Virus record (IMG/VR): IMGVR_UViG_2923302340_000007
Length of the DNA stretch: 55,200 bases
Direction: 5' to 3' (one strand)
From: a virus
Lineage: Duplodnaviria > Heunggongvirae > Uroviricota > Caudoviricetes
Position 1 is the first letter of the stretch, and each line of letters opens with the position of its first letter. Made by a program: the position numbers. Shown here in pieces: positions 24,224 to 33,200 of this stretch.

Positions 24224-27200
24224 TGAAAACGCCCACCATTCCCACCCTTCTGGGACCGGACGGCATGACATCGCTGCGCGAATATGCCGGTTATCACGGC
24301 GGTGGCAGCGGATTTGGAGGGCAGTTGCGGGCGTGGAACCCACCGAGTGAAAGTGTGGATGCAGCCCTGCTGCCCAACTTTACCCGTGGCAATGCCCGCG
24401 CAGACGATCTGGTACGCAATAACGGCTATGCCGCCAACGCCATCCAGCTGCATCAGGATCATATCGTCGGGTCTTTTTTCCGGCTCAGTCATCGCCCAAG
24501 CTGGCGCTATCTGGGCATCGGGGAGGAAGAAGCCCGTGCCTTTTCCCGCGAGGTTGAATCGGCATGGAAAGAGTTTGCCGAGGATGACTGCTGCTGCATT
24601 GACGTTGAGCGAAAACGCACGTTTACCATGATGATTCGGGAAGGTGTGGCCATGCACGCCTTTAACGGTGAACTGTTCGTTCAGGCCACCTGGGATACCA
24701 GTTCGTCGCGGCTTTTCCGGACACAGTTCCGGATGGTCAGCCCGAAGCGCATCAGCAACCCGAACAATACCGGCGACAGCCGGAACTGCCGTGCCGGTGT
24801 GCAGATTAATGACAGTGGTGCGGCGCTGGGATATTACGTCAGCGAGGACGGGTATCCTGGCTGGATGCCGCAGAAATGGACATGGATACCCCGTGAGTTA
24901 CCCGGCGGGCGCGCCTCGTTCATTCACGTCTTTGAACCCGTGGAGGACGGGTAGACCCGAGGTGCAAATGTGTTTTACAGCGTGATGGAGCAGATGAAGA
25001 TGCTCGACACGCTGCAGAACACGCAGCTGCAGAGCGCCATTGTGAAGGCGATGTATGCCGCCACCATTGAGAGTGAGCTGGATACGCAGTCAGCGATGGA
25101 TTTTATTCTGGGCGCGAACAGTCAGGAGCAGCGGGACAAGCTGACCGGCTGGATTGGTGAAATTGCCGCGTATTACGCCGCAGCACCGGTCCGTCTGGGA
25201 GGCGCAAAAGTGCCGCACCTGATGCCGGGTGACTCACTGAACCTGCAGACGGCTCAGGACACGGATAACGGCTACTCCGTGTTTGAGCAGTCACTGCTGC
25301 GGTATATCGCTGCCGGACTGGGTGTCTCGTATGAGCAGCTTTCCCGGAATTACGCCCAGATGAGCTACTCCACGGCACGGGCCAGCGCGAACGAGTCGTG
25401 GGCGCACTTTATGGGGCGGCGAAAATTCGTCGCATCCCGTCAGGCGAGCCAGATGTTTCTGTGCTGGCTGGAAGAGGCCATCGCCCGCCGCGTGGTGACG
25501 TTACCTTCAAAAGCGCGCTTCAGTTTTCAGGAAGCCCGCAGTGCCTGGGGGAACTGCGACTGGATAGGCTCCGGTCGTATGGCCATCGATGGTCTGAAAG
25601 AAGTTCAGGAAGCGGTGATGCTGATAGAAGCCGGGCTGAGTACCTACGAGAAAGAGTGTGCAAAACGCGGCGATGACTATCAGGAAATTTTTGCCCAGCA
25701 GGTCCGTGAAACGATGGAGCGTCGTGCAGCCGGTCTTAAACCACCCGCCTGGGCGGCTGCGGCATTTGAATCCGGGCTGCGACAATCAACAGAGGAGGAG
25801 AAGAGTGACAGCAGAGCTGCGTAATCTCCCGCATATTGCCAGCATGGCTTTTAATGAGCCGCTGATGCTTGAACCGTAAGCGGCTCGTCAGAACCGTATT
25901 GATATTTACTGAGAGCTCAGATCAACTTTCCAGGGCAACAGATCGCGTACCCGGTTTGCCGGCCAGTCCTGGATATGTTCAATGACGTAGCGCAGCCACT
26001 TTTCTGGCTCCACATTGTTCAGACGGCATGTGCCGATCAGCGAGTACAACACCGCCGCATGTTCACCACCGCTGTCGGAACCCGCGAACATCCAGTTTTT
26101 CCGGCCTACGGCCACTCCCCGTAAGGCGTTCTCTGCGATGTTGTTGTCGATTTCCACCCAGCCATTACTGCAGTACACGTTCAGTGCATCCCACTGTTTC
26201 AGCAGGTATGCGAACGCTTTTGCCGTATCTGAGTGACGCGACAGTGTTTTCATCTGTTGCTGTATCCAGTCATACAGTGACTGCATCAGTGGCGCGGCTC
26301 TGGTTTTTCTTGCCGCCAGACGCTGTTCTGCTGAACAGCCCCGGACCTCTGCCTCGATGGCATACAGTTCACCGATACGCTGCAGGGCTTCCGTGGTGAT
26401 GTCGGTGGGCGCTCTTGCATGCACATCGTGGATTTTTCTCCGGGCATGAGCCATACACGCGGCTTCCGTTATTCTGCCGGATTCGTATAACGCCCGGTAA
26501 CCACCGTAAGCATCGGCCTGAAGCACACCGCTGTAACCGGCCAGGTGATTTTGTGGATGGATACCTTTCCGGTCCGGACTGTACGCGAACCAGACCGCCG
26601 GGGGCATCTGTGAACCGGCGTTACGGTCATCACGGACGTAGACCCACAGCCGGGCTGTCCGGGTTTTACCGCTGCCCGGCTCCTGGACCGGGACGGGGAT
26701 ATCATCAGCATGGACTTTACCGGGCATCAGCACATACTGGCGCAGGACGTCATACAGCGGCTCCAGTAGTTCAGCAACGGCACCTGTCCAGCGCCCCAGC
26801 GTGGCGCGGCTCAGCTCCACACCCTGACGGCGGTATATCTCTGACTGGCGGTATAACGGCAGATGGTCTGCATATTTTCCGGTGACGACATGGGCCAGGA
26901 GCCCCGCTCCGGCATAACTGCGTGCAATGGGTTTTGAAGGTACTGGTGCCTGCACGATATGGTCGCACCGGCAACAGGCCAGTTTCGGACGTTGTGTTTC
27001 GATAACCTTAAAGGCGCTGCTGATAAGCTCCAGTTGCTCTGACACATCACATCCCAGAGAACTGAGTTCACCACCACAGGCCGGACAGCATTCCTCTTCC
27101 GGCCGGATAACCCGGGTTTCACGGGGAAGTGAGGCCGGTAACGGTTTACGGGCTGAAGACTGGCGCAGGGCGGATGGCAGTACCGGGTCATATTGCTCAC

Positions 27201-30200: not shown

Positions 30201-33200
30201 CGGAACGCGCTGGAATCCGTATATAACCCGTTGTAAAGTGAGGATATGGACACCTCACTTGCTCATGAGAACGCCCGCCTGCGGGCACTGTTGCAGACGC
30301 AACAGGACACCATACGCCAGATGGCTGAATACAACCGCCTGCTCTCACAGCGGGTGGCGGCTTATGCTTCCGAAATCAACCGGCTGAAGGCGCTGGTTGC
30401 GAAACTGCAGCGTATGCAGTTCGGTAAAAGCTCAGAAAAACTTCGCGCAAAAACCGAACGGCAGATACAGGAAGCACAGGAGCGAATCAGCGCACTTCAG
30501 GAAGAAATGGCGGAAACGCTGGGTGAGCAATATGACCCGGTACTGCCATCCGCCCTGCGCCAGTCTTCAGCCCGTAAACCGTTACCGGCCTCACTTCCCC
30601 GTGAAACCCGGGTTATCCGGCCGGAAGAGGAATGCTGTCCGGCCTGTGGTGGTGAACTCAGTTCTCTGGGATGTGATGTGTCAGAGCAACTGGAGCTTAT
30701 CAGCAGCGCCTTTAAGGTTATCGAAACACAACGTCCGAAACTGGCCTGTTGCCGGTGCGACCATATCGTGCAGGCACCAGTACCTTCAAAACCCATTGCA
30801 CGCAGTTATGCCGGAGCGGGGCTCCTGGCCCATGTCGTCACCGGAAAATATGCAGACCATCTGCCGTTATACCGCCAGTCAGAGATATACCGCCGTCAGG
30901 GTGTGGAGCTGAGCCGCGCCACGCTGGGGCGCTGGACAGGTGCCGTTGCTGAACTACTGGAGCCGCTGTATGACGTCCTGCGCCAGTATGTGCTGATGCC
31001 CGGTAAAGTCCATGCTGATGATATCCCCGTCCCGGTCCAGGAGCCGGGCAGCGGTAAAACCCGGACAGCCCGGCTGTGGGTCTACGTCCGTGATGACCGT
31101 AACGCCGGTTCACAGATGCCCCCGGCGGTCTGGTTCGCGTACAGTCCAGACCGGAAAGGTATCCATCCACAAAATCACCTGGCCGGTTACAGCGGTGTGC
31201 TTCAGGCCGATGCTTACGGTGGTTACCGGGCGTTATACGAATCCGGCAGAATAACGGAAGCCGCGTGTATGGCTCATGCCCGGAGAAAAATCCACGATGT
31301 GCATGCAAGAGCGCCCACCGACATCACCACGGAAGCCCTGCAGCGTATCGGTGAACTGTATGCCATCGAGGCAGAGGTCCGGGGCTGTTCAGCAGAACAG
31401 CGTCTGGCGGCAAGAAAAACCAGAGCCGCGCCACTGATGCAGTCACTGTATGACTGGATACAGCAACAGATGAAAACACTGTCGCGTCACTCAGATACGG
31501 CAAAAGCGTTCGCATACCTGCTGAAACAGTGGGATGCACTGAACGTGTACTGCAGTAATGGCTGGGTGGAAATCGACAACAACATCGCAGAGAACGCCTT
31601 ACGGGGAGTGGCCGTAGGCCGGAAAAACTGGATGTTCGCGGGTTCCGACAGCGGTGGTGAACATGCGGCGGTGTTGTACTCGCTGATCGGCACATGCCGT
31701 CTGAACAATGTGGAGCCAGAAAAGTGGCTGCGCTACGTCATTGAACATATCCAGGACTGGCCGGCAAACCGGGTACGCGATCTGTTGCCCTGGAAAGTTG
31801 ATCTGAGCTCTCAGTAAATATCAATACGGTTCTGACGAGCCGCTTACGCTGATTTACAGCGGCAGCCATAAGGTGGATGGCAATCCCTACAGCCATCTTC
31901 CGGATGACGTCCGGGAGACACTGCAGTCCCGGATGGACGCAACCCGCCAGATGTTTGCGCAGAAGGTGTCGGCATATACCGGCCTGTCCGTGCAGGCTGT
32001 GCTGGATACCGAGGCTGCAGTGTACAGCGGTCAGGAGGCCATTGATGCCGGACTGGCTGATGAACTTGTTAACAGCACCGATGCGATCACCGTCATGCGT
32101 GATGCACTGGATGCGCGTAAATCCCGTCTCTCAGGAGGGCGAATGACCAAAGAGACTCAATCAACAACTGTTTCAGCCACTGCTTCGCAGGCTGACGTTA
32201 CTGACGTGGTGCCAGCGACGGAGGGCGAAAACGCCAGCGCGGCGCAGCCGGACGTGAACGCGCAGATCACCGCAGCGGTTGCGGCAGAAAACAGCCGCAT
32301 TATGGGGATCCTCAACTGTGAGGAGGCTCACGGACGCGAAGAACAGGCGCGCGTTCTGGCAGAAACCCCCGGAATGACCGTGGAAACGGCCCGCCGCATT
32401 CTGGCTGCAGCACCACAGAGTGCACAGGCGCGCAGTGACACTGCGCTGGATCGTCTGATGCAGGGTGCACCGGCACCGCTGGCTGCAGGTAACCTAGCAT
32501 CTGATACCAATAAAGAATTACTTAATACACCTGAAGCTTTACCGGTATAAGAGGCAGTTATGGCGACAAAAGAAGAGTTTAACCATTACCAGCCGCTGGG
32601 TAACAGTGATCCGGCTCATACAGCAATTGCGCCTGGCGGATTGAGTGCGAAAACGCCTGCAATGACCCCGCTGATGCTGGATGGCACTACCCGTAAGCTG
32701 GTTGTGTGGGATGGCACCACCGACGGTGCAGCCGTTGGCATTCTGGCGGTTGCTGCTGACCAGACCAGCACCACACTGACGTTCTACAAGTCCGGCTCGT
32801 TCCGTTATGAGGATGTGCTCTGGCCGGAGGCTGCCAGCGACGAGACTAAAAAACGGACCGCGTTTGCCGGAACGGCAATCAGCATCGTTTAATCTTCCCC
32901 TTCATCAACAAAGGCCGCCTGTGCGGCTTTTTTTATGGAAATAATTTATGTCTGTATATACAACTGCAGAATTACTGGCATCGACCCAGCATCACTTTAA
33001 GTTCGATCCGCTGTTTCTGCGCCTGTTTTTCCGTGAAACCTATCCTTTCACCACGGAAAAAGTCTATCTCTCACAAATTCCGGGACTGGTAAACATGGCG
33101 CTGTACGTTTCGCCGATTGTTTCCGGTGAGGTTATCCGATCCCGTGGCGGCTCCACCTCTGAATTTACGCCGGGTTATGTCAAACCCAAGCATGAGGTGA

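Follow-up and report, generated by a model that had tools for sequence, protein, structure and literature searches.

The window, as the whole 55,200-nucleotide stretch is called here, is a serU-integrated, cdtABC-carrying lambda-like prophage of E. coli CFSAN018748 (pig). By annotation its head genes run terminase small subunit, terminase large subunit, W, portal, C fragments, D, E, FI and FII, which places C between portal gene B and decoration gene D in a lambda-type head operon. Gene C itself is in three pieces, and its centre is inverted between two copies of an insertion sequence. The features of the region are as follows.

24223-25824, plus strand: portal gene B, upstream of C; a pseudogene with an amber codon (TAG, 24952-24954) where lambda has CAG (Gln244)
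25805-25875, plus strand: 5' fragment of gene C from its GTG start (C nt 1-71), closing with the 8-nt target duplication of site 1, CTTGAACC (25868-25875)
25876-28574, minus strand: ISCro1 copy A (IS66 family, 2699 bp), IRR end at 25876 and IRL end at 28574; tnpC 25906-27477, tnpB 27497-27844 and tnpA 27844-28521, all on the minus strand
28575-29148, minus strand: inverted middle of gene C (C nt 64-637), 574 bp
29149-31847, plus strand: ISCro1 copy B (2699 bp); tnpA 29202-29879, tnpB 29879-30226 and tnpC 30246-31817
31848-32550, plus strand: 3' fragment of gene C (C nt 630-1332), opening with the 8-nt target duplication of site 2, GCTGATTT (31848-31855)
31933-32550, plus strand: Nu3 frame, intact (205 aa, with an ATG of its own), inside the C frame and 86 bp downstream from copy B

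The two copies face each other by their tnpA ends (head-to-head, IRL inward). The octamer of site 1 reappears as its exact reverse complement, GGTTCAAG, at 29141-29148, where it ends the inverted centre, and that of site 2 reappears in the same way as AAATCAGC at 28575-28582, where it begins it. The probability of both matches arising by chance is about 2e-10. The first-pass annotation had described this arrangement of the gene between inverted IS66-family copies, together with the reciprocal duplications, and every coordinate that it gave for the pieces and the octamers is correct. A separate inverted-repeat search returned arms at 25875-28574 and 29149-31848 with 574 nt between them. The extra outer base in each arm is a chance complementary pair, since about 30 other ISCro1 copies carry perfect 8-bp duplications at the boundaries of the first-pass annotation.

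Joining 25805-25875 to the reverse complement of 28575-29148, less one copy of CTTGAACC, and to 31856-32550 yields a single open frame of 1332 nt (443 aa). This is the continuous gpC frame expected if the pieces belong to one gene, with 428 of 439 residues identical to lambda gpC, and in a domain search the product matches Peptidase_S49 (1.4e-44). The GTG start, the nested Nu3 frame and the Nu1-A-W-B-C-D-E synteny are shared with lambda; however, the protein here is 4 residues longer, its last ~14 residues diverge, and its gene is disrupted. In lambda C each octamer occurs a single time (C nt 64-71 and 630-637), which makes both of them genuine target-site duplications. The possibility that the second ISCro1 copy is an assembly artefact was ruled out, as both sites have exact 8-bp duplications of octamers that are single-copy in lambda.

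The rearrangement severs the S49 protease domain (residues 150-297) at residue ~211, and gpC is destroyed. Expression of both C and Nu3 had been regarded as abolished. This holds for C but not for Nu3, where the intact frame means that any effect could come solely through transcription. The Nu3 frame is on the same strand as the genes of copy B, and from its position behind two insertion sequences its transcription can be subject to a polarity effect. The prophage is already defective without the C lesion. It also carries the portal amber codon, a frameshifted integrase, frameshifted tail genes and an IS2, and because of these lesions the functional weight of the C disruption is small. The cdtABC toxin genes, at the far end of the prophage, are untouched by the rearrangement.

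The element has three consecutive genes, tnpA, tnpB and tnpC, with domains of the IS66 family. TnpA matches HTH_Tnp_1 (2.8e-13), TnpB matches TnpB_IS66 (4.7e-40), and TnpC matches LZ_Tnp_IS66, zf-IS66, DDE_Tnp_IS66 (8e-104) and DDE_Tnp_IS66_C. The terminal inverted repeats start with GTAA (GTAACCGGCTCATTTAAACCG and GTAAGCGGCTCGTCAGAACCG, matching at 17 of the first 21 positions), and with the inversion undone each of the window's two sites has an 8-bp target-site duplication. At these boundaries, 29 other copies have perfect 8-bp duplications. Gene order, transposase, termini, duplication and length (2699 bp) are those of the ISCro1/IS679/ISEc8 group. RefSeq/PGAP names the transposase 'ISCro1 family', and the element is 97.6% identical in nucleotide sequence to the common E. 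coli copies called ISCro1 in RefSeq. Unlike these, the window copies belong to a minor variant (TnpA WP_096101123.1), which is found at 99.6-99.7% identity in STEC388 (pig STEC, China) and 14EC029 (a Chinese clinical isolate). Copy A and the reverse complement of copy B, an alignment already proposed in the first-pass annotation, differ at 1 nt over 2699 bp: position 26575 reads C where the reverse complement of copy B (at 31148) reads T. At this site (IS position 2000) copy A has the ancestral G, as do all outgroup genomes found by exact TnpC look-up, and copy B has a private synonymous substitution (Pro301, CCG>CCA). The same look-up returned other genomes only and no further ISCro1 copies of CFSAN018748.

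Among 5426 complete E. coli genomes, only one covers at least 80% of the locus and none has the same structure. Queries with the whole locus and with both outer junctions likewise found no relative with a single insertion or an un-inverted double insertion in this collection. The other 111 matches to the left junction were considered as ancestors and ruled out, as they represent a different ISCro1 insertion, ~390 bp deeper in gene C, in O26/O103 strains. Prophage gene C has been struck by ISCro1 independently at four sites in three lineages.

Pairs of ISCro1 copies elsewhere provide a comparison. Within 1100 bp there are about 9 inverted loci versus about 23 direct loci. Four direct-orientation pairs, 148-377 bp apart and including one of the window's variant in STEC388, have a perfect 8-bp duplication of its own at each copy. 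In the three equal-length pairs (L016-L018) both copies have the same sequence; those of the fourth (L019) differ by 1 nt in length and were left unscored for identity. Among 16 de-duplicated direct pairs with spacers of up to 1100 bp, 13 have spacers of at most 400 bp (p = 3e-4 relative to uniform spacing), and nested self-insertions occur at three loci (L006, L007 and L037). ISCro1 thus makes simple insertions, time and again, inside a resident copy or no more than a few hundred bases from it, and the donor copy is retained; this clustering is a modest side lead. One further case (H212) resembled an abutted head-to-tail dimer, a possible transposition intermediate, but proved to be a copy that had inserted, with a normal duplication, at nt 7-14 of the IRL of a resident copy.

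Nine other inverted pairs were scored. Three are reciprocal (L004, L005 and L036), and these lie in three unrelated genomes, in tssF of STEC388 (304 bp), in a TonB-receptor gene of Z1323CEC0012 (1810 bp) and in OkiPb01717 (2806 bp), with copies that are identical or 1 nt apart. Five (L009, L010, L011, L033 and L035) have ordinary duplications on both copies, and three of the five have identical copies. The flanks of the ninth (L008) are without any relationship. With the window included, reciprocal and ordinary inverted pairs stand at 4 to 5. The four reciprocal cases all have the head-to-head arrangement and the three tail-to-tail pairs include no reciprocal one, a difference that is not significant (Fisher p = 0.17).

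Two mechanisms fit the structure, the same two that the first-pass annotation had put forward. The one that we favour, and consider moderately probable, starts from two simple insertions, the second of them by a local hop, and ends in a homologous inversion. ISCro1 would have inserted twice in C, at nt 64-71 and nt 630-637 in opposite orientations, each time by an ordinary simple insertion with an 8-bp duplication of its own. Most probably the second copy derived from the first by hopping a short distance. The inverted 2.7-kb copies would then have undergone homologous recombination, or template switching during replication, which flipped the 574 bp and swapped one duplication partner per site, producing the reciprocal pattern. 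Near-identical long inverted repeats bracket the inverted segment, as in known homologous inversions between inverted IS copies, and 2699-bp repeats with one mismatch are an ample recombination substrate. With the centre turned back, what remains is a pair of ordinary insertions, each flanked by a direct 8-bp duplication. However, the spacer is unusually short for such an event and both insertions fall in one gene, so short-range re-insertion is needed, for which the survey of ISCro1 gives evidence. The 574-bp segment would be expected to go on flipping, and both orientations may coexist in culture. The missing parental arrangement in the genome collection is weak evidence against this account.

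The other mechanism is a single ISCro1 insertion, at either site, followed by one intramolecular replicative transposition in trans. The IS ends would attack a target lying 566 bp from the element, on the side of tnpA (IRL), duplicating the element in inverted orientation, inverting the segment between, and splitting a new 8-bp duplication across the copies. This account, possible but on balance doubtful, requires one event fewer, and the structure shows exactly the signature that is accepted as its mark in IS26 and Tn4401 (He et al. 2015, PMC4471558): inverted copies, inverted intervening DNA, and duplications as reverse-complement pairs with one partner per copy. The signature recurs with ISCro1 in STEC388, Z1323CEC0012 and OkiPb01717, and in one mobilome experiment circle junctions of the IS66-family ISEc22 were not detected. 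The likeness to IS26 and Tn4401 is one of footprint, and the element here is of the IS66 family, the transposition chemistry of which is uncharacterised (PMC12898284), with cointegrate or replicative chemistry unreported in the literature searched. ISCro1 also forms close direct pairs with ordinary duplications. A Shapiro-type intramolecular event cannot yield direct pairs with an intact spacer; a simple-insertion route therefore exists and would also supply inverted pairs, although it leaves room for a second transposition mode. Moreover, close inverted pairs are rarer than direct ones, and the five inverted pairs with ordinary duplications count against the replicative route. Copies that inserted independently and then flipped would be expected to give the 4:5 split, but so would pairs that start out reciprocal and flip later. 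Because flipping brings either starting state to the same equilibrium, the ratio was discarded as a test of mechanism and only the abundance of direct versus inverted pairs is informative. The inward IRL ends in all four reciprocal cases hint at a polarity that plain recombination does not predict; it would be explained if one-step transposition were polar, although the head-to-head bias is not significant. Somewhat less likely again is the wider proposal that ISCro1, and perhaps the IS66 family generally, undergoes one-step intramolecular replicative transposition in trans with the target always on the tnpA/IRL side, beside a local simple-insertion mode; if true, this would be the first footprint to bear on the mechanism of this large IS family.

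Long, close inverted repeats are expected to recombine and flip the DNA between them, and the deposited orientation of the 574-bp centre could accordingly be unrepresentative, either a mixed culture reported as one orientation or a spacer mis-oriented by the assembler. The four junction sequences do not differ between the orientations, so that the choice can be made only from reads that span an entire IS copy. We consider this improbable as an explanation of the structure. The two insertions and their duplications are real in either orientation, the same architecture is present in three independent assemblies from other laboratories, and a mixture would complement rather than replace the two mechanisms above.

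The rearrangement is real but ordinary, an event of a known kind. With the prophage dead and cdtABC intact it has little consequence for phage or host, and its value is methodological, as a clean textbook footprint of IS-mediated inversion. If the reciprocal pairs were one-step events, they would offer a first handle on IS66-family movement.

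Gene C of the prophage is interrupted by two copies of an element annotated as ISCro1, a member of the IS66 family with tnpA-tnpB-tnpC genes and family domains, GTAA termini and an 8-bp duplication. The two copies (copy A, 25876-28574, minus strand; copy B, 29149-31847, plus strand) are 2699 bp apiece and mutually inverted, and alignment of copy A with the reverse complement of copy B reveals a single difference. The octamer CTTGAACC at 25868-25875 reappears as its exact reverse complement at 29141-29148, and GCTGATTT at 31848-31855 does so at 28575-28582. The probability of both matches arising by chance is ~2e-10, and the positions reported for copies and octamers in the first-pass annotation are all correct. 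A separate repeat search recovers the identical inverted pair with 574 nt between its arms, each arm being 1 base longer on the outer side. This extra base is attributed to chance complementarity, because ~30 further ISCro1 copies have perfect 8-bp duplications at exactly the boundaries used here. The one difference lies at IS position 2000, which is G in copy A and in 35/35 other copies examined and A only in copy B (31148; Pro301 CCG>CCA, synonymous). It is either a private copy-B mutation or an assembly consensus error, and does not give the order of events.

The proposal that the segment between the copies is an inverted part of C was borne out by translation. When 28575-29148 is reverse-complemented, trimmed of one CTTGAACC and placed between 25805-25875 and 31856-32550, the result is a single open frame of 1332 nt (443 aa), with a GTG start like that of lambda gene C. 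Its product is identical to lambda gpC at 428/439 residues, with the differences concentrated at the C-terminus, and contains a Peptidase_S49 domain at residues 150-297. Each octamer is single-copy in lambda, at C nt 64-71 (site 1) and 630-637 (site 2), and those in the window are therefore true target duplications. Site 2 interrupts the protease domain. Expression of both C and Nu3 had been described as abolished; this goes too far for Nu3 (lambda 5132-5737, nested in C), although the rest of that interpretation is sound. The window counterpart of Nu3 (31933-32550) is intact, and its own ATG follows copy B at a distance of 86 bp; Nu3 shares its strand with the copy-B genes. Judged from this layout, Nu3 expression could suffer only through polarity.

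The window is chromosomal DNA of a swine strain from Denmark, E. coli CFSAN018748 (NZ_CP028192.1, where window position equals chromosomal position minus 2482212). The lambda-like prophage is integrated at the tRNA-Ser gene adjoining mtfA, and ends with cdtABC (CDT-I) followed by zinT.

Other features of the prophage, by window position
1-1026, integrase gene, frameshifted, beside tRNA-Ser
10005-11234, IS2 splitting a DUF977 gene
14221-15276, DUF968 gene with an internal stop
17872-17947 and 18045-18121, tRNA-Ile and tRNA-Arg genes, late regulatory region, downstream of a DNA methyltransferase gene
24223-25824, portal gene B, with an amber codon (CAG>TAG, 24952-24954) at codon 244 (lambda Gln244)
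37352-45765, tape measure, M, L, K and J, five consecutive tail genes annotated as frameshifted
46629-47087, IS200C transposase gene, between lom and tail-fibre genes
51379-53479, cdtA-cdtB-cdtC, intact, cytolethal distending toxin type I, prophage right end

Portal gene B otherwise agrees with lambda B at 527/534 translated positions, counting the stop, and its amber codon means that the head pathway had been blocked at the gene preceding C. The tail-gene frameshifts are either real decay or local sequencing error; by contrast, the head and proximal tail genes, portal and split C apart, were noted as intact. With the prophage so heavily decayed, losing gpC makes little further difference.

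This genome is the only one of 5426 complete E. coli genomes to cover >=80% of the locus, and none carries ISCro1 at site 1 alone or site 2 alone. None of the phage records searched for the locus carries the arrangement.

The structure is the shared end-product of two histories. Two simple ISCro1 insertions in opposite orientations would be followed by recombination between the copies, which would invert the intervening segment. Alternatively, one insertion would be followed by intramolecular replicative transposition in trans; for IS26 and Tn4401 this is how the identical signature is explained by common consent (PMC4471558). The locus itself cannot separate the two, and other close ISCro1 pairs were therefore surveyed. 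Reciprocal duplications (exchanged between the copies as reverse complements) with an inverted spacer also occur in three unrelated genomes, with copies identical or 1 nt apart: STEC388 (tssF, spacer 304 bp, the same IS variant as in the window), Z1323CEC0012 (a TonB-receptor gene, 1810 bp) and OkiPb01717 (2806 bp). Five inverted pairs (L009, L010, L011, L033, L035) have ordinary duplications, each copy with its own, and the copies are identical in 3/5. This ratio decides nothing, because both histories predict a roughly even split under frequent flipping. An inverted pair of the window's variant also surrounds finO-uilS-traX on plasmid p14EC029e; its four flanking octamers give 0 matches in any combination, a sign that the locus has been rearranged further or that its copies have exchanged with others at different sites.

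Direct pairs are more informative. End-junction queries, joining only pairs <=1100 bp apart, gave 28 direct records (~23 loci) against 6 head-to-head and 6 tail-to-tail records (~9 loci), an excess of direct over inverted loci with p = 0.02. Spacing is <=400 bp in 13/16 de-duplicated direct pairs (p = 3e-4), and in L016-L019 and match rows H197-H217 identical copies are often 100-400 bp apart. This suggests that ISCro1 re-inserts at short range and favours one orientation, or else that inverted pairs lying near each other are lost. In the four direct pairs examined (L016-L019, spacers 148-377 bp) a perfect 8-bp duplication of its own flanks each copy; equal-length copies are identical in L016-L018, L019 being left out of the identity score for a 1-nt length difference. 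A Shapiro-type intramolecular event could not have left the spacer intact between two direct copies, and ISCro1 therefore has a donor-keeping, locally hopping mode of simple insertion. ISCro1 also occurs inside ISCro1 with a normal duplication each time: in L006 and L007 the resident copy was entered at ~nt 300 and ~nt 250, and in L037 within its IRL, at nt 7-14. This self-targeting recalls the way in which certain other IS families target IRs.

Simple insertion alone would yield inverted pairs, and these are not in excess; for this reason two insertions followed by recombination are the somewhat more probable history, and replicative transposition in trans is rather unlikely. The scarcity and wider spacing (>=304 bp) of inverted pairs may arise because E. 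coli tolerates long near-palindromes poorly. Replicative transposition would gain from one pattern that the favoured history leaves over, if it is real: all four reciprocal pairs (the window, L004, L005, L036) are head-to-head, with tnpA (IRL) ends inward, whereas 0/3 tail-to-tail pairs (L010, L033, L035) are reciprocal, a difference that is not significant at these numbers (Fisher p = 0.17). Published work describes the IS66-family mechanism as insufficiently characterised (PMC12898284), and a mobilome study found no circle junctions for the family member ISEc22 (PMC5001619).

ISCro1 has independently come to occupy four separate sites in the 1.3-kb gene C of lambda-like prophages, in three lineages. 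An insertion at nt 455-462 (duplication ACATAAAA) is common to ~111 O26/O103-type genomes and another at nt 940-947 (CAATCAAC) is found in UK pig isolates; gene C insertion loci elsewhere include L003 (E. coli E2865, 5792-8490) and L002 (HCP5S3_I2, 4702-7400). The recurrence may be due to chance, to a preference for this target or to selection for inactive prophages. The 31 distinct ISCro1 duplications (mean G+C 42%) show a weak, roughly palindromic preference, G/C-W-T-T-A-A-N-C, fitted for example by GGTTCAAG, GTTCAAAC and TTTTAACC.

The rearrangement belongs to a known class of IS-mediated inversions, and the prophage that carries it is dead. The locus itself is of low interest, but the behaviour of ISCro1 seen alongside it is of some value to students of transposition.
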